This document shows, in pieces, positions 4,384 through 33,974 of a DNA stretch of 64,000 nt. This DNA is from Eledone cirrhosa (lineage: Eukaryota). The first letter of the stretch is position 1. Each line of letters starts with the position of its first letter. The stretch is from the NCBI GenBank assembly GCA_964016885.1, contig OZ024761.1, forward strand, positions 23,746,001 to 23,810,000, in the 5' to 3' direction. Made by a program: the position numbers and the translations under genes. The notes beneath the pieces are model-generated. The model was not told where the DNA came from and searched no databases. It saw only the letters and a list, made by a program, of their open reading frames with translations.

Positions 4384-5879
4384 AATTCTACTAAGTCAAA
4401 TAGGCATACTTATGGCTAAAGTTTTCTTTCTTTTTCTAAAAAAAAAAACGGAAAGACAGCGAGACAACACGATATATTCCGAGTGTTATGTCGCCGTCTT
4501 TCCGTTTCTATATAAATATAATAGGATATATAGCCATTGAAGAACTACTAGTATTTTCTACATATATACATGCCAATAAATATACTTATTTCAAGATGCT
4601 AACATATATATTATATACAAATCTGTTAGGTGTATATATGGTCGGTGCGTAGACAATTAAACCGGCAACCGAACCAAGCTTGCTTAGTGAGGAGGGTGAT
4701 ATTTGGACACCCTGCGGGATAAATACAAGACCCGACAAAGGGCAGAGTCAACGACCACCCAAATAGTACTTCTTTTTTTTACCTGGGAGTGATAGGCCCC
4801 CCCGCCCCCCCGTTGTTGTCACAACACCTCGGGTAGTGTTTTCGATGATCAGAGAGTGGGATTAAAAATCTTCAAAGCACAGGAATTACTTGTTCAGGAT
4901 CTGTTACAAGCTCGTGTGACTGGCCGTAGCCTAAAAGTGCACCATTTACTCTAATCTGAGAAGCGATAGCAATGCTCTTAGCAGAGTTTGCAGCCATCAT
5001 ATGTGTAAATATATATATGTCTGTGTGTGTGTATGTATATATACAGGTGGTGCTATTAAGTTAGACATGGGCTGGGCCCATCCTGCGCTAGCATGAAATG
5101 GCTAGGTCATGTGATGCGGAAGGGTGAAAGTGACTGGGTAAAAGGAGTAGGGAGCCCATGATGAATATTGTGTACAGAAATGGAATGAGATGGCTAGGTC
5201 ATGTGTTGACCTAATCTTATTTACATTTGTTTGTTAGTGCCTATTAAATACAGATATGACAATAAGATTGAAGATGGGGCGAGACAATAAGATCTATGTG
5301 TGGTACCAGTGAGGTAGCCATTCTTAGCTAAACATAGCTGCTATATCTTCCTCAAATTACACTCTACCCTATATTCTCTTAAAATGTAAGAGACATATTT
5401 CTAGATACACAATGTCAGAAATACTAAGTAACACGAGATGGTCACGGTTGGAAGAATATCTATGAACGAAAGGTTTGCTTGGTTTAGGCTGACATGTCAT
5501 GACAGACACCGGGAAATTAATTTCTGTCTGAAAGATACTACATCCAGCTAACCCCGCCCCACTATAAAAAAAAGATGTAATAAATGTTATCAAAGACCCT
5601 AAATAAGTAACGTATAAAGATAAGGGTAAAAATAAACTAACATCTAAAAAACTTATGTTGTATTCGAGACAATCGAGGTAGCTGGGTTACTAACAACAAA
5701 GTTCCTATCATGGTTGACGACTTGCCTTACTAAAGTATTACACAATGTTTATAAAGGTCCTTAGTTTCGCTATCACAATATCTTGGCTTACCTTCACAAT
5801 ATTTAGAAGGAAATGCACGTTTTATTATTTTTTGTGTCTTTGTGAGCATATATATATATATATTATTTTGCTTATAATT

Positions 5880-6450
5880 TAGTTAAAAATTCAGCTAACT
5901 TTTGTTGAAAATACAGTCAATTTTTGGTGAATATTCACTCGAATCTTATTGAAAATTTAGCCAATTTTTGCTTAAAATACATCCAATTTTTGGTAGAAAA
6001 TTCAGCCAATTTCTGTTCAAAATTTAGTCACTATTTGTTCAAAATACAGCCACCTTCTGTTGAGAGTTTAGTCAATTTTTATTGAAAATTGAGCCTATTT
6101 TTGCTGAAAATACATCCAATTTTTGGTAGAAAATTCAGCCAATTTCTGTTCAAAATTTAGTCACTATTTGTTCAAAATACAGCCACCTCCTGTTGAGAGT
6201 TTAGTCAATTTTTATTGAAAGTTGAGCCAATTTTTGCTGAAAATACAGCCAATTTTTGGTGAAAAATCAGCTAATTTTTGTTCAAAATACAGCCAACTTT
6301 TGTTGAAAGTTTAGTCAGTTTTTATTGAAATTTTAGCCAATTTTTGCTGAAAATACAGCCAATTTTTGGTGAAAAATCAGCTAATTTTTGTTCAAAATTT
6401 AGTCAATCTTTGTTCAAAATACAGGCAACTTTTGTTGAAAGTTTAGTCAA
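5880..6450. repeat. ~22-bp degenerate A/T-tract satellite (unit 1; also ~9515-9930, 12200-12815 and equivalents, 31910-32400)
   Basis: Consensus like AATTTTTGTTCAAAATTTAGTC, with higher-order internal duplications. Confidence 0.9.
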
Positions 6451-6825
6451 ATTAATTTCTACAGATTTTTTTTGTTCCATTTTTAGATCATATTCATGAA
6501 AGAAATGAATTATGTATGTTGAAATATCCGGTATGATATAGAAATAAAGATTAGTTTGGGACTTACTATTTTGTTGTTTTTATCCATAACATGTACTAAT
6601 TTCGGATTTTCACTGTTGAAAGATTTCATAGTGATAGGGTCTGTCTACATGGTCAGACCCTTTGCGACCAACAAGATGAGCATTCTCGTTGAAAGATTTC
6701 CCATATATTTCACAGTGAAAATGTTTTTAGCTATAGAAATAAAGATTAGTTTGGGACTTACTATTTTGTTGTTTTTATCCATAACATGTACTACCTTTCG
6801 GATTTTCACTGTTGAAAGATTTCAT

Positions 6826-7760
6826 AGTGATAGGGTCTGTCTACATGGTCAGTCCCTTTGCGACCAACAAGATGAGCATTCTCATTGAAAGATATTCCAC
6901 AGTGATAGGGTCTCTCTACATGGTCAGTCCCTTTGCGACCAACAAGATGAGCATTCTCATTGAAAGATATTCCACAGTGATAGGGTCTCTCTACATGGTC
7001 AGTTCCTTTGCGACCAACAAGATGAGCATTCTCATTGAAAGATATTCCACTGTGATAGGGTCTCTCTACATGGTCAGTTCCTTTGCGACCAACAAGATGA
7101 GCATTCTCATTGAAAGATATTCCACTGTGATAGGGTCTTTCTACATGGTCAGTTCCTTTGCGACCAACAAGATGAGCATTCTCATTGAAAGATATTCCAC
7201 TGTGATAGGGTCTCTCTACATGGTCAGTTCCTTTGCGACCAACAAGATGAGCATTCTCATTGAAAGATATTCCACAGTGATAGGGTCTTTCTACATGGTC
7301 AGTTCCTTTGCGACCAACAAGATGAGCATTCTCATTGAAAGATATTCCACTGTGATAGGGTCTCTCTACATGATCAGTTCCTTTGCGACCAACAAGATGA
7401 GCATTCTCATTGAAAGATATTCCACAGTGATAGGGTCTTTCTACATGGTCAGTTCCTTTGCGACCAACAAGATGAGAATTCTCATTGAAAGATATTCCAC
7501 AGTGATAGGGTCTTTCTACATGGTCAGTTCCTTTGCGACCAACAAGATGAGCATTCTCGTTCAAAGATATTCCACAGTAATAGGGTCTTTCTACATGGCC
7601 AGTTCCTTTGCGACCAACAAGATGAGCATTCTCGTTGAAATATATTCCAGTGATAGGGTCTTTCTACATGGTCAGTTCCTTTGCGACCAACAAGATGAGC
7701 ATTCTCGTTGAAAGATTTCCCATATATTTCACAGTGAAAATGTTTTTAGCTAGTGAGATT
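6826..7760 (-). pseudogene. C2H2 zinc-finger-derived 75-bp minisatellite, unit 1 (12 repeats)
   Basis: Minus strand reads (CGISFNENAHLVGRKGTDHVERPYH)n; the leader reads *KHFHCEIYGKSF, a decayed EKPFHCEICGKSF. Confidence 0.75.
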
Positions 7761-7789
7761 TCTATTGTGAACAATTAAATATTCTCAGT

Positions 7790-8005
7790 AGTAGAAGGGT
7801 CGTGGGGATAGAGTCCTTAAGCATGCCTTCCATCCGGTCCTGTCCGAAGCAACCGTTTCCAACTGGTCCAGCTGCATCCACAAGTGATACCACAAGTGAT
7901 ACCTGCTATAGGGCTCCTCTGTCAGTTGGTTTTGCTCGTAAAATCTGTCCATTGAGACATTCTAACCACTGATCAATAACATCGAAAGATCCTGAGTGGA
8001 GTAAA
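7790..8005 (-). mobile_element. RTE-clade LINE 3' fragment (present in each B segment)
   Basis: Reverse complement matches the RTE-like fragment at ~41580-41850 (GTGGTTAGAATGTCTCAA, AAAACCAAC, CAGTTGGA). Confidence 0.7.
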
Positions 8006-8851: not shown

Positions 8852-8861
8852 TATGTGTGTA

Positions 8862-8914
<53 letters not shown>

Positions 8915-10107
8915 GTATATATGATGGCTGGCCCCTCGTTATCGAGTATGGCAATTGCACGATATACCATTATTAATTAATTCTATCGTGCAATGCCTGA
9001 AAATGTAAGAGACACATTACAGAATGTATTTCTAGATACACAATGTCAGAAATACTAAGTAACACGAGATGGTCACGGTTGGAAGAATATCTATGGACGA
9101 AAGGTTTGCTTGGTTTAGGCTGACATGTCATGACAGACACCGAGAAATTAATTTCTGTCTGAAAGATACTAGATCCAGCTAACCCCTCCCCACTATAAAG
9201 AAAAGATGAAATAAATGTTATCAAAGACCCTAAATAAGTAACGTATAAAGATAAGGGTAAAAATAAACTAACATCTAAATAACTTATGTTGTATTCGAGA
9301 CAATCGGGGTAGCTTGGTTACTAACAACAAAGTTCCTATCATGGTTGGCGACTTGCCTTACTAAAGTATTACACAATGTTTATAAAGGTCCTTAGTTTCG
9401 CTATCACCTGTAACAATATCTTGGCTTACCTAAACAATATTTAGAAGGAAATGCACGTTTTATTATTTTTTGTGTCTTTGTGAGCATATATATATTTTTT
9501 TTTGCTTATAATTTTTGTTGAAAATATAGTCAATTTTTGGTGAATATTCACTCGAACTTTATTGAAAATTTAACAAATTTTTGCTTAAAATACATCCAAT
9601 TTTTGGTAGAAAATCCAGCCAATTTCTGTTCAAAATTTAGTCACTATTTGTTCAAAATACAGCCAACTTCTGTTGAAAGTTTAGTCAATTTTTATTGAAA
9701 ATTTAGCCAATTTTTGCTGAAAATACAGCCAATTTTTGGTGAAAAATCAGCTAACTTTTGTTCAAAATTTAGTCAATCTTTGTTCAAAATACAGCCAACT
9801 TTTGTTGAAAGTTTAGTCAATTTTTATTGAAAATTTAGCTAATCTTTGCTGAAAATACAGCCAACTTTTGTTAAAAACTTAGTCAATTTTTGTTCAAAAT
9901 ACAGGCAATCTTTGCTGAAAATTTAGTCAAATTAATTTCTACAGATTTTTTGTTCCATTTGTAGATCATATTCATGAAAGAAATGAATTATGTATGTTGA
10001 AATATCCGGTTTGATATAGAAATAAAGATTAGTTTGGGACTTACTATTTTGTTGTTTTTATCCATAACATGTACTACCTTTCGGATTTTCACTGTTGAAA
10101 GATTTTA

Positions 10108-10440
10108 TAGTGATAGGGTCTGTCTACATGGTCAGTTCCTTTGCGACCAACAAGATGAGCATTCTCATTGAAAGATATTCCACAGTGATAGGGTCTCTCT
10201 ACATGGTCAGTTCCTTTGCGACCAACAAGATGAGCATTCTCGTTGAAAGATATTCCACAGTGATAGGGTCTTTCTACATGGTCAGTTCCTTTGCGACCAA
10301 CAAGATGAGCATTCTCATTGAAAGATATTCCACAGTGATAGGGTCTCTCTACATGGTCAGTTCCTTTGCGACCAACAAGATGAGCATTCTCGTTGAAAGA
10401 TTTCCCATATATTTCACAGTGAAAATGTTTTTAGCTAATG
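10108..10440 (-). repeat. ZNF-derived 75-bp minisatellite, unit 2 (4 repeats)
   Basis: Four GCGACCAACAAG cores at 75-bp spacing. Confidence 0.9.
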
Positions 10441-12993
10441 AGATTTCTTTTGTGAACAATTAAATATTCTCAGTAGTAGAAGGGTCGTGGGGATAGAGTC
10501 CTTACGCATGCCTTCCATCCGGTTCTGTCCGAAACAACCGTTTCCAACTGGTTCAGCTGCATCCACAAGTGATACCAGCTGAGCTGAGGTCATGGATGTT
10601 AGCCAAACATCTTGCTATAGGGCTCCTCTGTCACTTGGTTTTGCTCGTAAAATCTGTCCATTGAGACATTCTAACCACTGATCCATAACATCGAAAGATC
10701 CTGAGTGGAGTAAACCTCAGATAAATTTTATTAAACAATTTTTCAATTAGATTATATGTTTGCAATAATAAAAATAAAATAACAAAAAGCAATGGAAATC
10801 GGAGGAAGGAGCAACTGATTGTACACTGCGGCCTGGGCACTATGTTTTAGCTGTACCCTGTGATGGACAGCCACTCCACTTCACAGCTCGAATGTACATA
10901 CATTATATATATACGAGCAGTGGTACCCGGCGTTGCACGGGATAAGGTATTTTGGAACCCGGGCCGCCAACAGACCTAATCGTGGAAAAACTGCATGCCT
11001 GGACAATATGTAAAGAAAATAAACCGAATACTTTGATGGCTGGATAATCTTTAAGATTTTCCTCGATGAAGCAGGAAAGGTGCAGGTTTTCACCTAATGC
11101 GGGCCCTAGGGGTTCATGAAAATAATAATTTTTTTATGTGCATAATATGCCTTGAAATTTCTGGAAAATCGGCTAGACGTAACGCCTCAAAAAAGCCCTA
11201 AAAAGCTGAAAAAAATGAAGTTATTCACCTAATGCGGGCCCTAGGCCATAAAAAAGTTGGATTTTCTTTGCTCACGGTATGAAGAAGAGACTGACTAATA
11301 CATAGTTACAATTTCAAGGAAATCAGTCTGACGTAACGCCTCAAAAACCCCCTAAAAACCTGAAAAAAACGCAGTTTTTCACCTAATGCGGGCCTTAGGG
11401 GATCAAAAGGTTGAATTTTTTTATGTATATAAAACTCCCTGAAGCATAAGTAATACACATGTAAAGTTTGAAAAAAGTTGGTAGGATACTTTTCGAGTTT
11501 TAGGGATTCAAATTCACAGACACAGACAGTCATCCTCAGTTTTATATATATAGATATGTGTATATATATGTATGCATATATATATATATATATATACATA
11601 TATATATGTATATATGATGGCTGGCCCCTCGTTATCGAGTATGGCAATTGCACGATATACCATTATTAATTAATTCTATCGTGCAATGCCTGAAAATGTA
11701 AGAGACACATTACAGAATGTATTTCTAGATACACAATGTCAGAAATACTAAGTAACACGAGATGGTCACGGTTGGAAGAATATCTATGGACGAAAGGTTT
11801 GCTTGGTTTAGGCTGACATGTCATGACAGACACCGAGAAATTAATTTCTGTCTGAAAGATACTAGATCCAGCTAACCCCTCCCCACTATAAAGAAAAGAT
11901 GAAATAAATGTTATCAAAGACCCTAAATAAGTAACGTATAAAGATAAGGGTAAAAATAAACTAACATCTAAATAACTTATGTTGTATTCGAGACAATCGG
12001 GGTAGCTTGGTTACTAACAACAAAGTTCCTATCATGGTTGACGACTTGCCTTACTAAAGTATTACACAATGTTTATAAAGGTCCTTAGTTTCGCTATCAC
12101 CTGTGACAATATCTTGGCTTACCTGAACAATATTTAGAAGGAAATGCACGTTTTATTATTTTTTGTGTCTTTGTGAGCATATATACATATATATTTTTTT
12201 TTGTTGAAAATTCAGCTAACTTTTGTTGAAAATATAGTCAATTTTTGGTGAATATTCACTCGAATTTTATTGAAAATTTAGCCAATTTTTCCTGAAAATA
12301 CATCCAATTTTTGGTGGAATATTCAGCCAATTTCTGTTCAAAATTTAGTCACTATTTGTTCAAAATACATCCAACTTTTGTTGAAAGTTTAGTCAATTTT
12401 TATTGAAAATTTAGCCAATTTTTGCTGAAAATACAGCCAATTTTTGGTGAAAAATCAGCCAATTTTTGTTCCAAATTTAGTCAATTTTTGTTCAAAATAA
12501 ATCCAACTTTTGTTGAAAGTTTAGTCAATTTTTATTGAAAATTTAGCCAATTTTTGCTGAAAATACAGCCAATTTTTGGTGAAAAATCAGCCAATTTTTG
12601 GTGAAAAATCAGCCAATTTTTGTTCCAAATTTAGTCAATTTTTGTTCAAAATAAATCCAACTTTTGTTGAAAGTTTAGTCAATTTTTATTGAAAATTTAG
12701 CCAATTTTTGCTGAAAATACAGCCAATTTTTGGTGAAAAATCAGCCAATTTTTGTTTCAAATTTAGTCAATTTTTGTTCAAAATACAGCCAACTTTTGTT
12801 GAAAGTTTAGTCAAATTAATTTCTACAGATTTTTTTGTTCCATTTGTAGATCATATTGATGGAAGAAATAAATTATGTATGTTGAAATATCCGATTATGA
12901 TATAGAAATAAAAATTAATTTGGGACTTACTATTTTGTTGTTTTTATCCATAACATGTACTACCTTTCGGATTTTCACTGTTGAAAGATTTTA

Positions 12994-13625
12994 TAGTGAT
13001 AGGGTCTGTCTACATGGTCAGTTCCTTTGCGACCAACAAGATGAGCATTCTCATTGAAAGATATTCCACAGTGATAGGGTCTTTCTACATGGTCAGTTCC
13101 TTTGCGACCAACAAGATGAGCATTCTCGTTGAAAGATATTCCACAGTGATAGGGTCTTTCTACATGGTCAGTTCCTTTGCGACCAACAAGATGAGCATTC
13201 TCGTTGAAAGATATTCCACAGTGATAGGGTCTTTCTACATGCTCAGTTCCTTTGCGACCAACAAGATGAGCATTCTCGTTGAAAGATATTCCACAGTGAT
13301 AGGGTCTTTCTACATGGTCAGTTCCTTTGCGACCAACAAGATGAGCATTCTCGTTGAAAGATATTCCACAGTGATAGGGTCTTTCTACATGGTCAGTTCC
13401 TTTGCGACCAACAAGATGAGCATTCTCGTTGAAAGATATTCCACAGTGATAGGGTCTTTCTACATGGTCAGTTCCTTTGCGACCAACAAGATGAGCATTC
13501 TCGTTGAAAGATATTCCACAGTGATAGGGTCTTTCTACATGGTCAGTTCCTTTGCGACCAACAAGATGAGCATTCTCGTTGAAAGATTTCCCATATATTT
13601 CACAGTGAAAATGTTTTTAGCTAGT
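12994..13625 (-). repeat. ZNF-derived 75-bp minisatellite, unit 3 (8 repeats)
   Basis: Eight 25-aa repeats in the overlapping ORF. Confidence 0.9.
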
Positions 13626-14770
13626 GAGATTTCTATTGTGAACAATTAAATATTCTCAGTAGTAGAAGGGTCGTGGGGATAGAGTCCTTACGCATGCCTT
13701 CCATCCGGTCCTGTCCGAAGCAACCGTTTCCAACTGGTCCAGCTGCATCCACAAGTGATACCAGCTGAGCTGAGCTCATGGATGTTAGCCAAACATCCTG
13801 CTATAGGGCTCCTCTGTCACTTGGTTTTGCTCGTAAAATCTGTCCATTGAGACATTCTAACCACTGATCAATAACATCGAAAGATCCTGAGTGGAGTAAA
13901 CCTCAGATAAATTTTATTAAACAATTTTTCAATTAGATTATATAATGTTTTCAATAATAAAAATAAAATAGCAAAAAGCAATGGAAATCGGAGGAAGGAG
14001 CAACTGATTGTACACTGCGGCCTGGGCACTATGTTTTAGCTGTACCCTGTGATGGACAGCCACTCCACTTCACAGGTCGAATGTACATACATTATATATA
14101 TACGAGCAGTGGTACCCGGCGTTGCACGGGATAAGGTATTTTGGAACGCGGGCCGCCAACAGACTTAATCGTGGAAAAACTGCATGCCTGGACAATATGT
14201 AAAGAAAATAAACCGAATACTTTGATGGCTGGATAATCTTTAAGATTTTCTTCGATGAAGCAGGAAAAATGCAGGTTTTCACTTAATGCGGGCCCTAGGT
14301 GATCAACAAAATGAATTTTTTTTTCATGTGCATAATATGCCGTGAAATTTCTGGAAAATCGGCTGGACGTAACGCCTCAAAAAAGTCCTAAAAAGCTGAA
14401 AAAAATGAAGTTATTCACCTAATGCGGGCTCTAGGTCATAAAAAAGTTGGATTTTCTTTGCTCACGGTATGAAGAAGAGACTGACTAATACATAGTTACA
14501 ATTTCAAGGAAATCAGTCTGACGTAACGCCTCAAAAAACCCCTAAAAACCTGAAAAAAACGCAGTTTTTCACCTAATGCGGGCCTTAGGGGATCAAAAGG
14601 TTGAATTTTTTTAATGTATATAGCACTCCCTGAAACATAAGTAATACACATGTAAAGTTTGAAAAAAGTTGGTAGGGTACTTTTCGAGTTTTAGGGATTC
14701 AAATTCACAGACACACAGACAGTCATCCTTAGTTTTATATATATAGATATGTGTATATATATATGTATGC

Positions 14771-14837
<67 letters not shown>

Positions 14838-16228
14838 TATATGTATATATGATGGCTGGCCCCTCGTTATCGAGTATGGCAATTGCACGATATACCATTA
14901 TTAATTAATTCTATCGTGCAATGCCTGAAAATGTAAGAGACACATTACAGAATGTATTTCTAGATACACAATGTCAGAAATACTAAGTAACACGAGATGG
15001 TCACGGTTGGAAGAATATCTATGGACGAAAGGTTTGCTTGGTTTAGGCTGACATGTCATGACAGACACCGAGAAATTAATTTCTGTCTGAAAGATACTAG
15101 ATCCAGCTAACCCCTCCCCACTATAAAGAAAAGATGAAATAAATGTTATCAAAGACCCTAAATAAGTAACGTATAAAGATAAGGGTAAAAATAAACTAAC
15201 ATCTAAATAACTTATGTTGTATTCGAGACAATCGGGGTAGCTTGGTTACTAACAACAAAGTTCCTATCATGGTTGACGACTTGCCTTACTAAAGTATTAC
15301 ACAATGTTTATAAAGGTCCTTAGTTTCGCTATCACCTGTGACAATATCTTGGCTTACCTGAACAATATTTAGAAGGAAATGCACGTTTTATTATTTTTTG
15401 TGTCTTTGTGAGCATATATACATATATATTTTTTTTTGTTGAAAATTCAGCTAACTTTTGTTGAAAATATAGTCAATTTTTGGTGAATATTCACTCGAAT
15501 TTTATTGAAAATTTAGCCAATTTTTCCTGAAAATACATCCAATTTTTGGTGGAATATTCAGCCAATTTCTGTTCAAAATTTAGTCACTATTTGTTCAAAA
15601 TACATCCAACTTTTGTTGAAAGTTTAGTCAATTTTTATTGAAAATTTAGCCAATTTTTGCTGAAAATACAGCCAATTTTTGGTGAAAAATCAGCCAATTT
15701 TTGTTCCAAATTTAGTCAATTTTTGTTCAAAATAAATCCAACTTTTGTTGAAAGTTTAGTCAATTTTTATTGAAAATTTAGCCAATTTTTGCTGAAAATA
15801 CAGCCAATTTTTGGTGAAAAATCAGCCAATTTTTGGTGAAAAATCAGCCAATTTTTGTTCCAAATTTAGTCAATTTTTGTTCAAAATAAATCCAACTTTT
15901 GTTGAAAGTTTAGTCAATTTTTATTGAAAATTTAGCCAATTTTTGCTGAAAATACAGCCAATTTTTGGTGAAAAATCAGCCAATTTTTGTTTCAAATTTA
16001 GTCAATTTTTGTTCAAAATACAGCCAACTTTTGTTGAAAGTTTAGTCAAATTAATTTCTACAGATTTTTTTGTTCCATTTGTAGATCATATTGATGGAAG
16101 AAATAAATTATGTATGTTGAAATATCCGATTATGATATAGAAATAAAAATTAATTTGGGACTTACTATTTTGTTGTTTTTATCCATAACATGTACTACCT
16201 TTCGGATTTTCACTGTTGAAAGATTTTA

Positions 16229-17010
16229 TAGTGATAGGGTCTGTCTACATGGTCAGTTCCTTTGCGACCAACAAGATGAGCATTCTCATTGAAAGATATT
16301 CCACAGTGATAGGGTCTTTCTACATGGTCAGTTCCTTTGCGACCAACAAGATGAGCATTCTCGTTGAAAGATATTCCACAGTGATAGGGTCTTTCTACAT
16401 GGTCAGTTCCTTTGCGACCAACAAGATGAGCATTCTCGTTGAAAGATATTCCACAGTGATAGGGTCTTTCTACATGCTCAGTTCCTTTGCGACCAACAAG
16501 ATGAGCATTCTCGTTGAAAGATATTCCACAGTGATAGGGTCTTTCTACATGGTCAGTTCCTTTGCGACCAACAAGATGAGCATTCTCGTTGAAAGATATT
16601 CCACAGTGATAGGGTCTTTCTACATGGTCAGTTCCTTTGCGACCAACAAGATGAGCATTCTCGTTGAAAGATATTCCACAGTGATAGGGTCTTTCTACAT
16701 GGTCAGTTCCTTTGCGACCAACAAGATGAGCATTCTCGTTGAAAGATATTCCACAGTGATAGGGTCTTTCTACATGGTCAGTTCCTTTGCGACCAACAAG
16801 ATGAGCATTCTCGTTGAAAGATATTCCACAGTGATAGGGTCTTTCTACATGGTCAGTTCCTTTGCGACCAACAAGATGAGCATTCTCGTTGAAAGATATT
16901 CCACAGTGATAGGGTCTTTCTACATGGTCAGTTCCTTTGCGACCAACAAGATGAGCATTCTCGTTGAAAGATTTCCCATATATTTCACAGTGAAAATGTT
17001 TTTAGCTAGT
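16229..17010 (-). repeat. ZNF-derived 75-bp minisatellite, unit 4 (10 repeats)
   Basis: Ten repeats; the unit is 150 bp longer than unit 3. Confidence 0.9.
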
Positions 17011-18155: not shown

Positions 18156-18222
<67 letters not shown>

Positions 18223-20245: not shown

Positions 20246-21390
20246 GAGATTTCTATTGTGAACAATTAAATATTCTCAGTAGTAGAAGGGTCGTGGGGAT
20301 AGAGTCCTTACGCATGCCTTCCATCCGGTCCTGTCCGAAGCAACCGTTTCCAACTGGTCCAGCTGCATCCACAAGTGATACCAGCTGAGCTGAGCTCATG
20401 GATGTTAGCCAAACATCCTGCTATAGGGCTCCTCTGTCACTTGGTTTTGCTCGTAAAATCTGTCCATTGAGACATTCTAACCACTGATCAATAACATCGA
20501 AAGATCCTGAGTGGAGTAAACCTCAGATAAATTTTATTAAACAATTTTTCAATTAGATTATATAATGTTTTCAATAATAAAAATAAAATAGCAAAAAGCA
20601 ATGGAAATCGGAGGAAGGAGCAACTGATTGTACACTGCGGCCTGGGCACTATGTTTTAGCTGTACCCTGTGATGGACAGCCACTCCACTTCACAGGTCGA
20701 ATGTACATACATTATATATATACGAGCAGTGGTACCCGGCGTTGCACGGGATAAGGTATTTTGGAACGCGGGCCGCCAACAGACTTAATCGTGGAAAAAC
20801 TGCATGCCTGGACAATATGTAAAGAAAATAAACCGAATACTTTGATGGCTGGATAATCTTTAAGATTTTCTTCGATGAAGCAGGAAAAATGCAGGTTTTC
20901 ACTTAATGCGGGCCCTAGGTGATCAACAAAATGAATTTTTTTTTCATGTGCATAATATGCCGTGAAATTTCTGGAAAATCGGCTGGACGTAACGCCTCAA
21001 AAAAGTCCTAAAAAGCTGAAAAAAATGAAGTTATTCACCTAATGCGGGCTCTAGGTCATAAAAAAGTTGGATTTTCTTTGCTCACGGTATGAAGAAGAGA
21101 CTGACTAATACATAGTTACAATTTCAAGGAAATCAGTCTGACGTAACGCCTCAAAAAACCCCTAAAAACCTGAAAAAAACGCAGTTTTTCACCTAATGCG
21201 GGCCTTAGGGGATCAAAAGGTTGAATTTTTTTAATGTATATAGCACTCCCTGAAACATAAGTAATACACATGTAAAGTTTGAAAAAAGTTGGTAGGGTAC
21301 TTTTCGAGTTTTAGGGATTCAAATTCACAGACACACAGACAGTCATCCTTAGTTTTATATATATAGATATGTGTATATATATATGTATGC

Positions 21391-21457
<67 letters not shown>

Positions 21458-22848
21458 TATATGTATATATGATGGCTGGCCCCTCGTTATCGAGTATGGC
21501 AATTGCACGATATACCATTATTAATTAATTCTATCGTGCAATGCCTGAAAATGTAAGAGACACATTACAGAATGTATTTCTAGATACACAATGTCAGAAA
21601 TACTAAGTAACACGAGATGGTCACGGTTGGAAGAATATCTATGGACGAAAGGTTTGCTTGGTTTAGGCTGACATGTCATGACAGACACCGAGAAATTAAT
21701 TTCTGTCTGAAAGATACTAGATCCAGCTAACCCCTCCCCACTATAAAGAAAAGATGAAATAAATGTTATCAAAGACCCTAAATAAGTAACGTATAAAGAT
21801 AAGGGTAAAAATAAACTAACATCTAAATAACTTATGTTGTATTCGAGACAATCGGGGTAGCTTGGTTACTAACAACAAAGTTCCTATCATGGTTGACGAC
21901 TTGCCTTACTAAAGTATTACACAATGTTTATAAAGGTCCTTAGTTTCGCTATCACCTGTGACAATATCTTGGCTTACCTGAACAATATTTAGAAGGAAAT
22001 GCACGTTTTATTATTTTTTGTGTCTTTGTGAGCATATATACATATATATTTTTTTTTGTTGAAAATTCAGCTAACTTTTGTTGAAAATATAGTCAATTTT
22101 TGGTGAATATTCACTCGAATTTTATTGAAAATTTAGCCAATTTTTCCTGAAAATACATCCAATTTTTGGTGGAATATTCAGCCAATTTCTGTTCAAAATT
22201 TAGTCACTATTTGTTCAAAATACATCCAACTTTTGTTGAAAGTTTAGTCAATTTTTATTGAAAATTTAGCCAATTTTTGCTGAAAATACAGCCAATTTTT
22301 GGTGAAAAATCAGCCAATTTTTGTTCCAAATTTAGTCAATTTTTGTTCAAAATAAATCCAACTTTTGTTGAAAGTTTAGTCAATTTTTATTGAAAATTTA
22401 GCCAATTTTTGCTGAAAATACAGCCAATTTTTGGTGAAAAATCAGCCAATTTTTGGTGAAAAATCAGCCAATTTTTGTTCCAAATTTAGTCAATTTTTGT
22501 TCAAAATAAATCCAACTTTTGTTGAAAGTTTAGTCAATTTTTATTGAAAATTTAGCCAATTTTTGCTGAAAATACAGCCAATTTTTGGTGAAAAATCAGC
22601 CAATTTTTGTTTCAAATTTAGTCAATTTTTGTTCAAAATACAGCCAACTTTTGTTGAAAGTTTAGTCAAATTAATTTCTACAGATTTTTTTGTTCCATTT
22701 GTAGATCATATTGATGGAAGAAATAAATTATGTATGTTGAAATATCCGATTATGATATAGAAATAAAAATTAATTTGGGACTTACTATTTTGTTGTTTTT
22801 ATCCATAACATGTACTACCTTTCGGATTTTCACTGTTGAAAGATTTTA

Positions 22849-23480
22849 TAGTGATAGGGTCTGTCTACATGGTCAGTTCCTTTGCGACCAACAAGATGAG
22901 CATTCTCATTGAAAGATATTCCACAGTGATAGGGTCTTTCTACATGGTCAGTTCCTTTGCGACCAACAAGATGAGCATTCTCGTTGAAAGATATTCCACA
23001 GTGATAGGGTCTTTCTACATGGTCAGTTCCTTTGCGACCAACAAGATGAGCATTCTCGTTGAAAGATATTCCACAGTGATAGGGTCTTTCTACATGGTCA
23101 GTTCCTTTGCGACCAACAAGATGAGCATTCTCGTTGAAAGATATTCCACAGTGATAGGGTCTTTCTACATGGTCAGTTCCTTTGCGACCAACAAGATGAG
23201 CATTCTCGTTGAAAGATATTCCACAGTGATAGGGTCTTTCTACATGGTCAGTTCCTTTGCGACCAACAAGATGAGCATTCTCGTTGAAAGATATTCCACA
23301 GTGATAGGGTCTTTCTACATGGTCAGTTCCTTTGCGACCAACAAGATGAGCATTCTCGTTGAAAGATATTCCACAGTGATAGGGTCTTTCTACATGGTCA
23401 GTTCCTTTGCGACCAACAAGATGAGCATTCTCGTTGAAAGATTTCCCATATATTTCACAGTGAAAATGTTTTTAGCTAGT
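22849..23480 (-). repeat. ZNF-derived 75-bp minisatellite, unit 6 (8 repeats)
   Basis: Eight repeats; lacks the ATGCTC variant in repeat 4. Confidence 0.9.
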
Positions 23481-24625
23481 GAGATTTCTATTGTGAACAA
23501 TTAAATATTCTCAGTAGTAGAAGGGTCGTGGGGATAGAGTCCTTACGCATGCCTTCCATCCGGTCCTGTCCGAAGCAACCGTTTCCAACTGGTCCAGCTG
23601 CATCCACAAGTGATACCAGCTGAGCTGAGCTCATGGATGTTAGCCAAACATCCTGCTATAGGGCTCCTCTGTCACTTGGTTTTGCTCGTAAAATCTGTCC
23701 ATTGAGACATTCTAACCACTGATCAATAACATCGAAAGATCCTGAGTGGAGTAAACCTCAGATAAATTTTATTAAACAATTTTTCAATTAGATTATATAA
23801 TGTTTTCAATAATAAAAATAAAATAGCAAAAAGCAATGGAAATCGGAGGAAGGAGCAACTGATTGTACACTGCGGCCTGGGCACTATGTTTTAGCTGTAC
23901 CCTGTGATGGACAGCCACTCCACTTCACAGGTCGAATGTACATACATTATATATATACGAGCAGTGGTACCCGGCGTTGCACGGGATAAGGTATTTTGGA
24001 ACGCGGGCCGCCAACAGACTTAATCGTGGAAAAACTGCATGCCTGGACAATATGTAAAGAAAATAAACCGAATACTTTGATGGCTGGATAATCTTTAAGA
24101 TTTTCTTCGATGAAGCAGGAAAAATGCAGGTTTTCACTTAATGCGGGCCCTAGGTGATCAACAAAATGAATTTTTTTTTCATGTGCATAATATGCCGTGA
24201 AATTTCTGGAAAATCGGCTGGACGTAACGCCTCAAAAAAGTCCTAAAAAGCTGAAAAAAATGAAGTTATTCACCTAATGCGGGCTCTAGGTCATAAAAAA
24301 GTTGGATTTTCTTTGCTCACGGTATGAAGAAGAGACTGACTAATACATAGTTACAATTTCAAGGAAATCAGTCTGACGTAACGCCTCAAAAAACCCCTAA
24401 AAACCTGAAAAAAACGCAGTTTTTCACCTAATGCGGGCCTTAGGGGATCAAAAGGTTGAATTTTTTTAATGTATATAGCACTCCCTGAAACATAAGTAAT
24501 ACACATGTAAAGTTTGAAAAAAGTTGGTAGGGTACTTTTCGAGTTTTAGGGATTCAAATTCACAGACACACAGACAGTCATCCTTAGTTTTATATATATA
24601 GATATGTGTATATATATATGTATGC

Positions 24626-24692
<67 letters not shown>

Positions 24693-26083
24693 TATATGTA
24701 TATATGATGGCTGGCCCCTCGTTATCGAGTATGGCAATTGCACGATATACCATTATTAATTAATTCTATCGTGCAATGCCTGAAAATGTAAGAGACACAT
24801 TACAGAATGTATTTCTAGATACACAATGTCAGAAATACTAAGTAACACGAGATGGTCACGGTTGGAAGAATATCTATGGACGAAAGGTTTGCTTGGTTTA
24901 GGCTGACATGTCATGACAGACACCGAGAAATTAATTTCTGTCTGAAAGATACTAGATCCAGCTAACCCCTCCCCACTATAAAGAAAAGATGAAATAAATG
25001 TTATCAAAGACCCTAAATAAGTAACGTATAAAGATAAGGGTAAAAATAAACTAACATCTAAATAACTTATGTTGTATTCGAGACAATCGGGGTAGCTTGG
25101 TTACTAACAACAAAGTTCCTATCATGGTTGACGACTTGCCTTACTAAAGTATTACACAATGTTTATAAAGGTCCTTAGTTTCGCTATCACCTGTGACAAT
25201 ATCTTGGCTTACCTGAACAATATTTAGAAGGAAATGCACGTTTTATTATTTTTTGTGTCTTTGTGAGCATATATACATATATATTTTTTTTTGTTGAAAA
25301 TTCAGCTAACTTTTGTTGAAAATATAGTCAATTTTTGGTGAATATTCACTCGAATTTTATTGAAAATTTAGCCAATTTTTCCTGAAAATACATCCAATTT
25401 TTGGTGGAATATTCAGCCAATTTCTGTTCAAAATTTAGTCACTATTTGTTCAAAATACATCCAACTTTTGTTGAAAGTTTAGTCAATTTTTATTGAAAAT
25501 TTAGCCAATTTTTGCTGAAAATACAGCCAATTTTTGGTGAAAAATCAGCCAATTTTTGTTCCAAATTTAGTCAATTTTTGTTCAAAATAAATCCAACTTT
25601 TGTTGAAAGTTTAGTCAATTTTTATTGAAAATTTAGCCAATTTTTGCTGAAAATACAGCCAATTTTTGGTGAAAAATCAGCCAATTTTTGGTGAAAAATC
25701 AGCCAATTTTTGTTCCAAATTTAGTCAATTTTTGTTCAAAATAAATCCAACTTTTGTTGAAAGTTTAGTCAATTTTTATTGAAAATTTAGCCAATTTTTG
25801 CTGAAAATACAGCCAATTTTTGGTGAAAAATCAGCCAATTTTTGTTTCAAATTTAGTCAATTTTTGTTCAAAATACAGCCAACTTTTGTTGAAAGTTTAG
25901 TCAAATTAATTTCTACAGATTTTTTTGTTCCATTTGTAGATCATATTGATGGAAGAAATAAATTATGTATGTTGAAATATCCGATTATGATATAGAAATA
26001 AAAATTAATTTGGGACTTACTATTTTGTTGTTTTTATCCATAACATGTACTACCTTTCGGATTTTCACTGTTGAAAGATTTTA

Positions 26084-26715
26084 TAGTGATAGGGTCTGTC
26101 TACATGGTCAGTTCCTTTGCGACCAACAAGATGAGCATTCTCATTGAAAGATATTCCACAGTGATAGGGTCTTTCTACATGGTCAGTTCCTTTGCGACCA
26201 ACAAGATGAGCATTCTCGTTGAAAGATATTCCACAGTGATAGGGTCTTTCTACATGGTCAGTTCCTTTGCGACCAACAAGATGAGCATTCTCGTTGAAAG
26301 ATATTCCACAGTGATAGGGTCTTTCTACATGCTCAGTTCCTTTGCGACCAACAAGATGAGCATTCTCGTTGAAAGATATTCCACAGTGATAGGGTCTTTC
26401 TACATGGTCAGTTCCTTTGCGACCAACAAGATGAGCATTCTCGTTGAAAGATATTCCACAGTGATAGGGTCTTTCTACATGGTCAGTTCCTTTGCGACCA
26501 ACAAGATGAGCATTCTCGTTGAAAGATATTCCACAGTGATAGGGTCTTTCTACATGGTCAGTTCCTTTGCGACCAACAAGATGAGCATTCTCGTTGAAAG
26601 ATATTCCACAGTGATAGGGTCTTTCTACATGGTCAGTTCCTTTGCGACCAACAAGATGAGCATTCTCGTTGAAAGATTTCCCATATATTTCACAGTGAAA
26701 ATGTTTTTAGCTAGT
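26084..26715 (-). repeat. ZNF-derived 75-bp minisatellite, unit 7 (8 repeats)
   Basis: Eight repeats. Confidence 0.9.
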
Positions 26716-27860
26716 GAGATTTCTATTGTGAACAATTAAATATTCTCAGTAGTAGAAGGGTCGTGGGGATAGAGTCCTTACGCATGCCTTCCATCCGGTC
26801 CTGTCCGAAGCAACCGTTTCCAACTGGTCCAGCTGCATCCACAAGTGATACCAGCTGAGCTGAGCTCATGGATGTTAGCCAAACATCCTGCTATAGGGCT
26901 CCTCTGTCACTTGGTTTTGCTCGTAAAATCTGTCCATTGAGACATTCTAACCACTGATCAATAACATCGAAAGATCCTGAGTGGAGTAAACCTCAGATAA
27001 ATTTTATTAAACAATTTTTCAATTAGATTATATAATGTTTTCAATAATAAAAATAAAATAGCAAAAAGCAATGGAAATCGGAGGAAGGAGCAACTGATTG
27101 TACACTGCGGCCTGGGCACTATGTTTTAGCTGTACCCTGTGATGGACAGCCACTCCACTTCACAGGTCGAATGTACATACATTATATATATACGAGCAGT
27201 GGTACCCGGCGTTGCACGGGATAAGGTATTTTGGAACGCGGGCCGCCAACAGACTTAATCGTGGAAAAACTGCATGCCTGGACAATATGTAAAGAAAATA
27301 AACCGAATACTTTGATGGCTGGATAATCTTTAAGATTTTCTTCGATGAAGCAGGAAAAATGCAGGTTTTCACTTAATGCGGGCCCTAGGTGATCAACAAA
27401 ATGAATTTTTTTTTCATGTGCATAATATGCCGTGAAATTTCTGGAAAATCGGCTGGACGTAACGCCTCAAAAAAGTCCTAAAAAGCTGAAAAAAATGAAG
27501 TTATTCACCTAATGCGGGCTCTAGGTCATAAAAAAGTTGGATTTTCTTTGCTCACGGTATGAAGAAGAGACTGACTAATACATAGTTACAATTTCAAGGA
27601 AATCAGTCTGACGTAACGCCTCAAAAAACCCCTAAAAACCTGAAAAAAACGCAGTTTTTCACCTAATGCGGGCCTTAGGGGATCAAAAGGTTGAATTTTT
27701 TTAATGTATATAGCACTCCCTGAAACATAAGTAATACACATGTAAAGTTTGAAAAAAGTTGGTAGGGTACTTTTCGAGTTTTAGGGATTCAAATTCACAG
27801 ACACACAGACAGTCATCCTTAGTTTTATATATATAGATATGTGTATATATATATGTATGC

Positions 27861-27927
<67 letters not shown>

Positions 27928-29318
27928 TATATGTATATATGATGGCTGGCCCCTCGTTATCGAGTATGGCAATTGCACGATATACCATTATTAATTAATT
28001 CTATCGTGCAATGCCTGAAAATGTAAGAGACACATTACAGAATGTATTTCTAGATACACAATGTCAGAAATACTAAGTAACACGAGATGGTCACGGTTGG
28101 AAGAATATCTATGGACGAAAGGTTTGCTTGGTTTAGGCTGACATGTCATGACAGACACCGAGAAATTAATTTCTGTCTGAAAGATACTAGATCCAGCTAA
28201 CCCCTCCCCACTATAAAGAAAAGATGAAATAAATGTTATCAAAGACCCTAAATAAGTAACGTATAAAGATAAGGGTAAAAATAAACTAACATCTAAATAA
28301 CTTATGTTGTATTCGAGACAATCGGGGTAGCTTGGTTACTAACAACAAAGTTCCTATCATGGTTGACGACTTGCCTTACTAAAGTATTACACAATGTTTA
28401 TAAAGGTCCTTAGTTTCGCTATCACCTGTGACAATATCTTGGCTTACCTGAACAATATTTAGAAGGAAATGCACGTTTTATTATTTTTTGTGTCTTTGTG
28501 AGCATATATACATATATATTTTTTTTTGTTGAAAATTCAGCTAACTTTTGTTGAAAATATAGTCAATTTTTGGTGAATATTCACTCGAATTTTATTGAAA
28601 ATTTAGCCAATTTTTCCTGAAAATACATCCAATTTTTGGTGGAATATTCAGCCAATTTCTGTTCAAAATTTAGTCACTATTTGTTCAAAATACATCCAAC
28701 TTTTGTTGAAAGTTTAGTCAATTTTTATTGAAAATTTAGCCAATTTTTGCTGAAAATACAGCCAATTTTTGGTGAAAAATCAGCCAATTTTTGTTCCAAA
28801 TTTAGTCAATTTTTGTTCAAAATAAATCCAACTTTTGTTGAAAGTTTAGTCAATTTTTATTGAAAATTTAGCCAATTTTTGCTGAAAATACAGCCAATTT
28901 TTGGTGAAAAATCAGCCAATTTTTGGTGAAAAATCAGCCAATTTTTGTTCCAAATTTAGTCAATTTTTGTTCAAAATAAATCCAACTTTTGTTGAAAGTT
29001 TAGTCAATTTTTATTGAAAATTTAGCCAATTTTTGCTGAAAATACAGCCAATTTTTGGTGAAAAATCAGCCAATTTTTGTTTCAAATTTAGTCAATTTTT
29101 GTTCAAAATACAGCCAACTTTTGTTGAAAGTTTAGTCAAATTAATTTCTACAGATTTTTTTGTTCCATTTGTAGATCATATTGATGGAAGAAATAAATTA
29201 TGTATGTTGAAATATCCGATTATGATATAGAAATAAAAATTAATTTGGGACTTACTATTTTGTTGTTTTTATCCATAACATGTACTACCTTTCGGATTTT
29301 CACTGTTGAAAGATTTTA

Positions 29319-30100
29319 TAGTGATAGGGTCTGTCTACATGGTCAGTTCCTTTGCGACCAACAAGATGAGCATTCTCATTGAAAGATATTCCACAGTGAT
29401 AGGGTCTTTCTACATGGTCAGTTCCTTTGCGACCAACAAGATGAGCATTCTCGTTGAAAGATATTCCACAGTGATAGGGTCTTTCTACATGGTCAGTTCC
29501 TTTGCGACCAACAAGATGAGCATTCTCGTTGAAAGATATTCCACAGTGATAGGGTCTTTCTACATGCTCAGTTCCTTTGCGACCAACAAGATGAGCATTC
29601 TCGTTGAAAGATATTCCACAGTGATAGGGTCTTTCTACATGGTCAGTTCCTTTGCGACCAACAAGATGAGCATTCTCGTTGAAAGATATTCCACAGTGAT
29701 AGGGTCTTTCTACATGGTCAGTTCCTTTGCGACCAACAAGATGAGCATTCTCGTTGAAAGATATTCCACAGTGATAGGGTCTTTCTACATGGTCAGTTCC
29801 TTTGCGACCAACAAGATGAGCATTCTCGTTGAAAGATATTCCACAGTGATAGGGTCTTTCTACATGGTCAGTTCCTTTGCGACCAACAAGATGAGCATTC
29901 TCGTTGAAAGATATTCCACAGTGATAGGGTCTTTCTACATGGTCAGTTCCTTTGCGACCAACAAGATGAGCATTCTCGTTGAAAGATATTCCACAGTGAT
30001 AGGGTCTTTCTACATGGTCAGTTCCTTTGCGACCAACAAGATGAGCATTCTCGTTGAAAGATTTCCCATATATTTCACAGTGAAAATGTTTTTAGCTAGT
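29319..30100 (-). repeat. ZNF-derived 75-bp minisatellite, unit 8 (10 repeats)
   Basis: Ten repeats. Confidence 0.9.
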
Positions 30101-31245
30101 GAGATTTCTATTGTGAACAATTAAATATTCTCAGTAGTAGAAGGGTCGTGGGGATAGAGTCCTTACGCATGCCTTCCATCCGGTCCTGTCCGAAGCAACC
30201 GTTTCCAACTGGTCCAGCTGCATCCACAAGTGATACCAGCTGAGCTGAGCTCATGGATGTTAGCCAAACATCCTGCTATAGGGCTCCTCTGTCACTTGGT
30301 TTTGCTCGTAAAATCTGTCCATTGAGACATTCTAACCACTGATCAATAACATCGAAAGATCCTGAGTGGAGTAAACCTCAGATAAATTTTATTAAACAAT
30401 TTTTCAATTAGATTATATAATGTTTTCAATAATAAAAATAAAATAGCAAAAAGCAATGGAAATCGGAGGAAGGAGCAACTGATTGTACACTGCGGCCTGG
30501 GCACTATGTTTTAGCTGTACCCTGTGATGGACAGCCACTCCACTTCACAGGTCGAATGTACATACATTATATATATACGAGCAGTGGTACCCGGCGTTGC
30601 ACGGGATAAGGTATTTTGGAACGCGGGCCGCCAACAGACTTAATCGTGGAAAAACTGCATGCCTGGACAATATGTAAAGAAAATAAACCGAATACTTTGA
30701 TGGCTGGATAATCTTTAAGATTTTCTTCGATGAAGCAGGAAAAATGCAGGTTTTCACTTAATGCGGGCCCTAGGTGATCAACAAAATGAATTTTTTTTTC
30801 ATGTGCATAATATGCCGTGAAATTTCTGGAAAATCGGCTGGACGTAACGCCTCAAAAAAGTCCTAAAAAGCTGAAAAAAATGAAGTTATTCACCTAATGC
30901 GGGCTCTAGGTCATAAAAAAGTTGGATTTTCTTTGCTCACGGTATGAAGAAGAGACTGACTAATACATAGTTACAATTTCAAGGAAATCAGTCTGACGTA
31001 ACGCCTCAAAAAACCCCTAAAAACCTGAAAAAAACGCAGTTTTTCACCTAATGCGGGCCTTAGGGGATCAAAAGGTTGAATTTTTTTAATGTATATAGCA
31101 CTCCCTGAAACATAAGTAATACACATGTAAAGTTTGAAAAAAGTTGGTAGGGTACTTTTCGAGTTTTAGGGATTCAAATTCACAGACACACAGACAGTCA
31201 TCCTTAGTTTTATATATATAGATATGTGTATATATATATGTATGC

Positions 31246-31312
<67 letters not shown>

Positions 31313-32594
31313 TATATGTATATATGATGGCTGGCCCCTCGTTATCGAGTATGGCAATTGCACGATATACCATTATTAATTAATTCTATCGTGCAATGCC
31401 TGAAAATGTAAGAGACACATTACAGAATGTATTTCTAGATACACAATGTCAGAAATACTAAGTAACACGAGATGGTCACGGTTGGAAGAATATCTATGGA
31501 CGAAAGGTTTGCTTGGTTTAGGCTGACATGTCATGACAGACACCGAGAAATTAATTTCTGTCTGAAAGATACTAGATCCAGCTAACCCCTCCCCACTATA
31601 AAAAAAAGATGAAATAAATGTTATCAAAGACCCTAAATAAGTAACGTATAAAGATAAGGGTAAAAATAAACTAACATCTAAATAACTTATGTTGTATTCG
31701 AGACAATCGGGGCAGCTGGGTTACTAACAACAAAGTTCCTATCATGGTTGACGACTTGCCTTACTAAAGTATTACACAATGTTTATAAAGGTCCTTAGTT
31801 TCGCTATCACCTGTGACAATATCTTGGCTTACCTGAACAATATTTAGAAGGAAATGCACGTTTTATTATTTTTTGTGTCTTTGTGAGCATATATACATAT
31901 ATATTTTATTTTTTGTTTAAAATTTAGTCAATTTTTGCTGAAAATACAGCCAACTTTTCTTGAAAATTTAGCCAATTTTTGTTCAAAATTTAGTCAATTT
32001 TTGTTCAAAATACAGCCAATTTTTGGTGGAAAATTCATCCAATTTTTGTTCAAAATTTAGTTAATTTTTGTTCAAAATTTAGTCAATATTTGTTCAAAAT
32101 ACAGCCAACTTTTGTTGAAAGTTTAGAGAATTTTTATTGAAAATTTAGCCAATTTTTGGTGGAAAATTCAGCCAATTTTTGTTCAAAATTTAGTCAATAT
32201 TTGTTCAAAATACAGCCAACTTTTGTTGAAAGTTTAGTAAATTTTTATTGAAAATTTAGCCAATTTTTGGTGGAAAATTTAGTCAATTTTTGTTCAAAAT
32301 ACAGCCAATGTTTGCTGAAAATTCAACCAATTATTGGTGAAAAATCAGCCAATTTTTGTTCAAAATTTAGCCAATTTTTGCTGAAAATTTAGTCAAATTA
32401 ATATCTACGGATTTTTTTGTTCCATTTGTAGATCATATTCATGAAATAAATGAATTATGCATGTTGAAATATTCGATATGATATAGAAATAAAGATTAGT
32501 TTGGGACTTACTATTTTGTTGTTTTCATCCATAACATGTACTACCTTAGTCAGTTAGCCACATTTTCGGATTTTCACCGTTGAAAGTTCTTTCA

Positions 32595-33445
32595 CAGTGA
32601 TAGGGTCTCTTTACATGGTCAGTTCCTTTGCGACCAACAAGATAAGCATTCTCGTTGAAAGATATTCCACAGTGATAGGGTCTCTCTACATGGTCAGTTC
32701 CTTTGCGACCAACAAGATGAGCATTCTCGTTGAAATATATTCCAGTAATAGGGTCTCTCTACATGGCCAGTTCCTTTGCGACCAACAAGATGGGCATTCT
32801 CGTTGAAATATATTCCAGTAATAGGGTCTCTCTACATGGCCAGTTCCTTTGCGACCAACAAGATGAGCATTCTCGTTGAAATATATTCCAGTAATAGGGT
32901 CTCTCTACATGGCCAGTTCCTTTGCGACCAACAAGATGAGCATTCTCGTTGAAATATATTCCAGTGATAGGGTCTCTCTACATGGCCAGTTCCTTTGCGA
33001 CCAACAAGATAAGCATTCTCGTTGAAATATATTCCACAGTAATAGGGTCTTTCTACATGGCCAGTTCCTTTGCGACCAACAAGATAAGCATTCTCGTTGA
33101 AATATATTCCACAGTAATAGGGTCTTTCTACATGCCCAGTTTCTTTGCGACCAACAAGATAAGCATTCTCGTTCAAAGATATTCCACAGTGATAGGGTTT
33201 CTCTACATGGTCAGTTCCTTTGCGACCAACAAGATGAGCATTTTCGTTGAAAGATATTCCACAGTGATAGGGTCTCTCTACATGGTCAGTTCCTTTGCGA
33301 CCAACAAGATGAGCATTTTCGTTGAAAGATATTCCACAGTGATAGGGTCTCTCTACATGGTCAGTTCCTTTGCGACCAACAAGATGAGCATTCTCGTTGA
33401 AAGATTTCCCATATATTTCAGTGAAAATGTTTTTACCCAGTGAGA
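32595..33445 (-). pseudogene. ZNF-derived minisatellite, unit 9 (11 diverged repeats, several of 73 bp)
   Basis: Leader on the minus strand is ACT GGG TAA AAA CAT TTT CAC (TG*KHFH, cf. TGEKPFH); one repeat reads HVEKPYHC; 2-bp deletions frameshift the array. Confidence 0.75.
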
Positions 33446-33974
33446 TTTCTTTTGTGAACAATTAAATAATAGAAAACGGTCAAGTAGGGAAAGAACGGGA
33501 GTGGGGTCAGTTAACTGAATAATTTCTGACGGTTTTAGGGTCACATTAGTCAGAAAACATAAATTTCATATCCAACAGGTCTAAATGTAAAAGTTTGCCT
33601 AATGTTATTTACCTTTGTTTGTTAGTTTGTGTTAAACACAGATATGACAATAGGATTGAAGTTAGCCTCACTTCTTCAGCCACACTTTCGGATTTTCACC
33701 ATGTAAAGTTTTATTTACTATGATTGATTTTTAAAGTGATATTGAATAAATTTTCTTCTTCCTTGCCCACATATTCTCAAAAGGAGGAGGGTTGTGGGGG
33801 CATAGATTATTTATTTTCATGTTGTATGAGATAAAAGAAAACATTCATGTATATATATATATATCATCATCATCATCATCATCATAGATTAATGTCCATC
33901 TTCCATGACAGGTCCTATTTTAAGGCAAGTTGTGTCGGTTGACCATGCCTCGCTTCTTAACGCCAACCACATTG

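Follow-up and report, generated by a model that had tools for sequence, protein, structure and literature searches.

The 64,000-bp window studied here (Eledone cirrhosa, assembly GCA_964016885.1, contig OZ024761.1, positions 23,746,001 to 23,810,000 of the forward strand; coordinates below are counted from its first letter) carries a long tandem array at 5381..33468, upstream of the gene CHTF18. In our view this is quite probably an intergenic array in which a broken C2H2 zinc-finger fragment persists as a 75-bp minisatellite, likely non-coding, and which has likely grown through out-of-register recombination at three scales. Tandem Repeats Finder and self-comparison identified nine repeats of a block with a 22-bp and a 75-bp array, and all three periods named in a preliminary description of this DNA (22 bp, 75 bp and about 3.2 kb) were recovered. 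Segments of two kinds alternate along the array: A, which includes both minisatellites, and B, which we describe below. The amplified 75-mer is a finger relic devoid of a complete set of zinc ligands. The earlier proposal that zinc-finger DNA is here turning into satellite DNA was supported. The 28-kb length is that of the array in the window sequence; its copy number in the animal is unconfirmed.

Origin and state of the 75-bp monomer

Read on the minus strand, the 75-bp monomer (eight copies at 12979..13580 in unit 3, taken as the representative unit) gives 25 residues in an open frame and resembles a degenerate C2H2 finger. Preceding the repeat frame on the same strand are the end of one finger, a TAA stop codon in the linker and one full finger of 84 nt; this relic (13527..13651) would have seeded the array. 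It extends over about 2.5 Kruppel-type fingers, with the ligands lost and one stop, and it retains the 28-residue spacing and the F-x-C, G-K-x-F, leucine and TGEKP-like linker positions of C2H2 proteins.

A 76-residue query (the relic and about one further period, stops read as X) gave 94 matches in PDB at E values up to 10. The best 60 were all C2H2 proteins, with PRDM9 chains at ranks two and three and a best single-stretch E value of 1.1e-4, and the alignments placed a three-residue gap in the cysteine knuckle, equal to the shortening from 84 to 75 bp. The 213-residue repeat frame had 1933 matches among 1.84 billion representatives; in the best 150 of the 1933, identity was at most 45% throughout and 148 representatives had at least three fingers. 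Nine of the ten representatives that we looked up were named; all were vertebrate, mostly with zinc-finger or PRDM9-like names. We also used a profile of 1766 fingers, which was built from matches to the repeat frame itself and is therefore not an independent test: the full finger of the relic (the seed finger) scored highest among all six-frame windows of 28 residues, with 14.5 bits, whereas none of the 71,230 windows beyond the array exceeded -0.4 bits, and it aligned without gaps, with the consensus residue at 11 of 28 positions. Structures, representatives and profile all pointed to finger proteins, in agreement with the earlier proposal, and we read the 75-mer as a derivative of a C2H2 zinc finger, as judged by its sequence.

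Other searches were less informative. Pfam gave zf-H2C2_2 at an E value of 0.0059, under the family cut-off, and no finger match for a single 25-residue monomer or for the frameshifted piece of unit 9. The summed zf-C2H2 score of the whole repeat frame (39.3 bits) exceeded the Pfam cut-off of 25.2 bits, but was dropped as proof, since DUF6618, NUP210_Ig and Viral_Rep reached similar scores through summing. Recognition in the ESM Atlas stayed under the threshold (top three clusters unnamed, C2H2 clusters at ranks 27-30) and served as a lead only. The 75-mer pattern had zero matches in metagenome contigs, and Rfam on 4000-15000 gave only sub-threshold microRNA matches, on (TA)n runs.

The seed finger holds one of four zinc ligands. 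The lost codons are TAT at the second cysteine and CGC and GAC at the two histidines, each one base away from Cys or His. In all 70 internal monomers both histidines and three residues of the knuckle were gone, and none of the 70 was 84 bp long; neither the seed finger nor the monomers have the two cysteines and two histidines of a functional C2H2 domain, and the motif C-x(2,4)-C-x12-H-x(3,5)-H was absent from the entire array. Two copies of the TCTTTCAAC motif, originally spaced by 84 bp, came to lie 75 bp apart through a 9-bp deletion in one finger. Because all internal monomers share the deletion and the ligand losses, the finger was evidently dead prior to amplification. The in-frame TAA upstream was present in all six units translated (1, 2, 3, 4, 6 and 9), five frameshifted monomers of 73 bp were located in units 1 and 9, and no ATG was found in the minus-strand finger frame, splice sites being judged by eye only. 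On the opposite (+) strand the 75-mer also has an open frame with ATGs (12954-13649 and equivalents, 231 codons in unit 3). An extension of the finger homology into B was tried and dropped, as those bases also match dispersed LINE-like copies.

Array layout and exchange between units

The array is laid out as A-(B-A)8, with nine A and eight B segments and a final unit that closes with A. Homology sets in at 5378-5396 and finishes at 33467-33468, and these borders bear out, within the window sequence, the layout proposed earlier. Anchored counting gave unit spacings of 3631, 2693, 3235, 3385, 3235, 3235, 3235 and 3385 bp and a total of 80 75-mers, with 13, 4, 8, 10, 8, 8, 8, 10 and 11 per unit; the preliminary description had listed exactly this series, with the first count written as 12(+1), the additional monomer lying in a 196-bp duplication of the spacer in the A copy of unit 1. 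The units run head-to-tail, measure 2.7-3.6 kb and are 0-6% apart, and in this the array resembles a small macrosatellite that holds minisatellites; they are AT-rich, with a G+C content of 27-42% per kb of array DNA.

Only four distinct unit types, 2-6% apart, were recognized: unit 1, unit 2, units 3-8 and unit 9. The first A copy (5381..7780) consists of about 470 bp of unique sequence, a 22-mer array (5850-6444), a spacer, twelve 75-mers (6810-7709) and a 71-bp tail. The second (9012..10465) has only four 75-mers, at 10093-10394, and the ninth (31415..33468) has eleven, four of them 73 bp long, as well as a 2-bp deletion in the seed finger. Units 3-8 form a block (11576..31602) that is base-identical outside the 75-mer arrays over 2633 bp per unit, including a 115-bp imperfect (TA)n run. 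Units 3, 5 and 7 are the same, as are units 4 and 8; the pair of units 3 and 4 equals the pair of units 7 and 8 over 6620 bp, and unit 6 differs at one base in one monomer. The 22-bp minisatellite (12181..12808 in unit 3) carries an additional higher-order period of 132 bp (6 x 22) according to Tandem Repeats Finder. Its monomer order (12198-12814 and equivalents) differs among all four unit types.

Judged by its sequence features, the B segment combines debris of LINE and Helitron origin with a (TA)n run. Part 1 (13652..13879, minus strand in unit 3) is a LINE-like fragment, presumably of RTE type, 67% identical to 41608-41827 and with a further copy at 45209. Part 2 (14103..14747, minus strand) is a putative non-autonomous Helitron-like element of 645 bp, with a 5ʹ TC after A, a short CTGT repeat and a 3ʹ hairpin; a search of the unit-3 element for subterminal inverted repeats of the HINE type, with pure A/T words filtered out, gave no terminal pair of 11-15 bp made up of three or more kinds of base. 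A dispersed copy in a CHTF18 intron (42265..42728, plus strand), about 95% identical over the shared parts, keeps an intact CTAG before T and shows the 5ʹ TC, 3ʹ hairpin, CTRR end and A/T flanks typical of Helitrons, while all four array copies inspected end in CTCG instead of CTAG. Another intronic copy (50443-50640, -/+ partial) is about 71% like the array copy. Part 3 (14736..14939) combines the 115-bp (TA)n run with an 89-bp hairpin piece; it is identical in units 1, 2 and 3, and its start is the beginning of a perfect-identity zone common to all junction types. The 89-bp piece is also found at 52660-52707.

Divergence between the unit types was uneven: 1.8-6.5% in the spacer, 2.6-6.4% in the LINE piece, 3.4-3.8% in the Helitron-like element and 0/89 in the 89-bp piece. 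In the A1 segment, unit 1 was 2.2-2.7% away from the other types, which differed from one another by 0.7-1.3%. At sites where the end copies of A (A1 and A9) differ, unit 3 resembled A9 on its left (9 of 10) and A1 on its right (9 of 12; Fisher p 0.0037), and so did unit 2 (8 of 9 and 9 of 12; p 0.0075), these p values being optimistic, as adjacent sites are non-independent. By this polarity the interior A copies are chimeras of A9 (left) and A1 (right), which supports unequal exchange. The three junction types had 443, 317 and 295 bp of perfect identity, starting within the (TA)n run, for which the probability by chance is 1e-4 to 3e-3 even at 2% divergence. Unequal exchanges, joining diverged units or alleles, thus likely cluster in the zone of the (TA)n run, the hairpin and the start of A. 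The preliminary description had assumed unequal exchange between two ancestral A copies flanking B. The polarity agrees with such an exchange, but a single event around one B is insufficient because the first three B copies are as diverged (36-45 substitutions in about 1230 bp) as A1 and A9; the data call for exchange that was repeated or that took place between alleles already diverged.

Taken together, the array may have arisen as follows. The 9-bp deletion would have brought two TCTTTCAAC motifs to a distance of 75 bp. Once the gene was dead, slippage from one motif to the other, or their unequal exchange, could have started the minisatellite. The finger fragment, the 22-bp minisatellite, the LINE/Helitron debris and the (TA)n run make up the 3-kb unit, which would have been multiplied by unequal exchange mostly in the (TA)n-hairpin-A-start zone. 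The last step would have been the appearance of six identical copies of unit 3, by gain of copies or by over-expansion in the assembly.

Just beyond the array we found an older, decayed local duplicate (33593..33813) that comprises flank, the left edge of the 75-mer region and the start of B, ordered as in the array, and has no 75-mer array; 69 bp of it are 85.5% like the left flank at 5205-5273. Two of its three alignments scored above shuffled sequences (75.2 vs 59.0 and 77.0 vs 65.4; 300 shuffles each), and the third lay within the shuffle range (63.7 vs a maximum of 72.4, 300 shuffles). The duplicate suggests that flank-A-B could be the old order. Where the seed finger has ATGGG the duplicate has GTGGG, which would fit an ancestral cysteine codon, the match being very short.

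Copy number and alternative explanations

Seven public runs, none recorded as RNA, were available; three of them, from sample S1, hold 77-82% of the words. Four of the seven runs were aligned to 4600-5845. The S1 contigs over A1 had depths of 41.8 (run X1), 29.8 (X2) and 25.7 (X3), the last two contigs including flank, and further pieces of X3 had 24.1 and 32, whereas six short records that departed from the flank or unit 1 by no more than two letters had depths of 9.3-14.7; the six were picked by eye from 24 shown of 6714 pieces. At a single-copy depth of 12, our model predicted 36.8/28.4/24.6 for 4+4 units, 50.9/37.8/31.7 for 9+1 and 96.8/68.3/55.0 for 9+9; at a single-copy depth of 9, a 9+1 genotype gave 38.2/28.3/23.8 and fitted as well. 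The S1 contigs over A1 bear letters of the interior units and a 7-bp insertion, and therefore interior unit types exist in S1. The RAD run X5, with about two reads on A1, was too sparse for copy counting. The left flank of S1 occurs in two versions (at 5243 and 5315), with a substitution and a 10-bp deletion in X2 and neither in X3, so S1 is likely heterozygous there.

These data bear on the six identical units (11576-31602), which may be partly or wholly an over-expansion by the assembler, with about four units and 12 kb in the animal. This possibility, compatible with our explanation of the array, we rate a little short of an even chance. Not one difference was found across 6 x 2633 bp, even in the (TA)n run, and the S1 depths are near the 4+4 model and far from 9+9. 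Moreover, two of the three S1 runs kept the letters of unit 9 at 5679/5684, a type carried by one of the nine window units, not those of the majority, seven of the nine, which differ from unit 9 there; contig builders would presumably keep the deeper path. However, contig depth is not copy number and the depth references were chosen by eye, the 9+1 genotype at depth 9 fits too, and S1 may or may not be the assembled animal, so that length polymorphism could be seen instead. The ordered unit pattern (8, 10, 8, 8*, 8, 10) would also give long reads an anchor. S1 is likely without the six-fold block, and whether the block is a recent private expansion on one haplotype or an over-expanded assembly is close to an even choice. 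A minimum of four units, with about 12 kb of DNA, appears genuine because sequence and internal array structure differ among them. The nine units of the preliminary description hold for the window sequence and are unconfirmed for the animal; the depth of the S1 contigs fits about four per haplotype.

Several observations weigh against the explanation of the array as non-coding, exchange-grown debris. In units 2-8 the minus-strand frame stays open over 113, 213 or 263 codons (213-263 in units 3-8), no monomer variant introduces a stop into it, and the variants seen most often are synonymous, wholly so in three of the top five; the selection test, in which synonymous variants were not in excess (5 synonymous and 11 non-synonymous variants, in comparison to 22% synonymous expected, p 0.26), rests on 16 variants and has little power. 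Protein searches by words, for which the repeat frame and the 76-residue stretch served as queries, found no parent zinc-finger gene, which is weak evidence. No crossover was observed, the part assigned to the (TA)n run is inferred, and a left-right polarity arises at the edges of any array. The open frames, including the ATG-containing frame on the plus strand, could indicate an expressed multi-copy family, either a novel protein of 25-residue repeats that goes back to a zinc finger or a product of the antisense frame. We regard this as very unlikely: the minus-strand frame lacks an ATG and closely follows an in-frame TAA, frameshifts occur in units 1 and 9, identity stayed at or below 45% in the 150 best protein matches, the word search offered no candidate, and an open frame is found in 19% of shuffled 75-mers and, once present, survives their tandem repetition. 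We also find it quite unlikely that this is a newborn, copy-variable locus in which the 75-mer is transcribed and acts either as a 25-residue repeat protein without C2H2 zinc binding or, in the form of antisense or small RNA, against the octopod zinc-finger family, its dose or the CHTF18 promoter being tuned by the length of the array. That the Helitron-like element built the array by rolling-circle replication, with read-through of its damaged 3ʹ end and the relic carried along, we find quite unlikely. The CTCG end shared by the four array copies, in comparison to CTAG in the dispersed copy, and an edge of an identical block about 25 bp from the 5ʹ end of an element would fit, and tandem Helitrons and capture of flanks are described in PMC7492417. 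Yet the array starts and stops with A, an A copy, the 89-bp piece and the (TA)n run come ahead of the first element as the element is read, and the elements of units 1, 2 and 3 are as far apart as their surroundings. Because the array borders are not element ends, we treat the element as a passenger. Finally, the array could be a snapshot of how functional cephalopod C2H2 clusters are built, as the preliminary description had offered. Amplification of finger-derived DNA at two levels is indeed present, and in coleoids the C2H2 genes form clusters and have greatly expanded in number (PMC9068888, PMC12513265); this documented expansion also makes a finger relic unsurprising. Nevertheless, the amplified piece was already unable to bind zinc: the monomer, with one cysteine and no canonical histidine pair, cannot form a finger, none of the units yielded an intact finger, a start or an upstream exon, and there is no other C2H2 array within the 64-kb window. 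We consider this possibility most improbable and largely refuted here. The array is not a zinc-finger cluster in the making; our preferred explanation remains a gene-derived satellite, which is likely neutral.

Genomic neighbourhood and known systems

CHTF18 (37451..63823, plus strand) continues to the end of the window. Its start codon and exon 1 are at 37451, 3983 bp beyond the end of the array, which agrees with the earlier statement that the array lies 4 kb upstream. Two octopod CHTF18 proteins map with their exons in order on the plus strand, from 37457 to 63823; the exon search gave four matches among 22 candidates, and the exon at 50159-50368 was 79% identical to CHTF18 of Argonauta hians, 74% to that of Octopus vulgaris and 71% to that of O. 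bimaculoides. These matches identify the host as an octopod. Between the array and the gene, a LINE fragment with reverse-transcriptase-like frames was seen by eye at 34300-35330 (+). Minisatellite growth is common in the region, to judge from the many others in the CHTF18 introns, with periods of 30, 22, 24, 22, 158 and 48 bp at 44018-44453, 49763-50136, 55205-55741, 59458-59732, 60186-60603 and 60888-61502. A lone C2H2-like stretch at 52868-52951 (-), YVCQLC...H with the second histidine missing and followed by a stop, is located about 160 bp from the repeat end at 52660-52707 and probably represents the last finger of a LINE together with its tail.

The birth of a satellite from a dead gene would be readable here at a single locus, from the lesion that set the period, the seed finger and the unamplified duplicate, and three ages of duplication are legible. 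The locus does not explain the growth of living zinc-finger clusters. Dead repeats of this kind, with long open frames and a summed zf-C2H2 score over the Pfam cut-off, could inflate the zinc-finger counts of cephalopod annotations, and base-identical arrays call for a check against raw reads. The six-fold block, if real, would amount to a length variant of 16 kb at a distance of 4 kb from a gene that acts in replication. A literature search, with most subscription papers outside its reach, found no report of a zinc-finger-derived satellite in cephalopods.

Known macrosatellites share with this array a gene-derived content, DUX4 in the D4Z4 unit, and smaller repeats nested in the unit, as in DXZ4. 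Their units of 3.3 kb (D4Z4) and 3 kb (DXZ4), as given in PMC8122249, resemble ours in being about 3 kb long, head-to-tail and confined to one locus. In contrast, the array described here is composed of a dead gene fragment and AT-rich transposon debris and has only four unit types. The minisatellite of PRDM9, whose unit is 84 bp, also consists of near-identical finger-derived repeats that vary in number; however, the fingers of PRDM9 are intact, coding and selected, whereas ours are 75 bp long and ligand-less, with no SET or KRAB domain nearby. The cephalopod C2H2 expansions are the likely source family, given the Kruppel-type 28-residue spacing and the TGEKP-like linker, but they are expressed genes, according to PMC12513265, in contrast to a relic of about 2.5 fingers. 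The element in B shares with non-autonomous Hel-2 Helitrons, as described in PMC4344730, the 5ʹ TC, the CTGT repeat, the 3ʹ hairpin and the CTAG-type end. In the oyster Cg_HINE elements (PMC7492417) the tandem repeats lie inside the element, whereas in our array the element is a passenger, with the 22- and 75-bp repeats located outside it.

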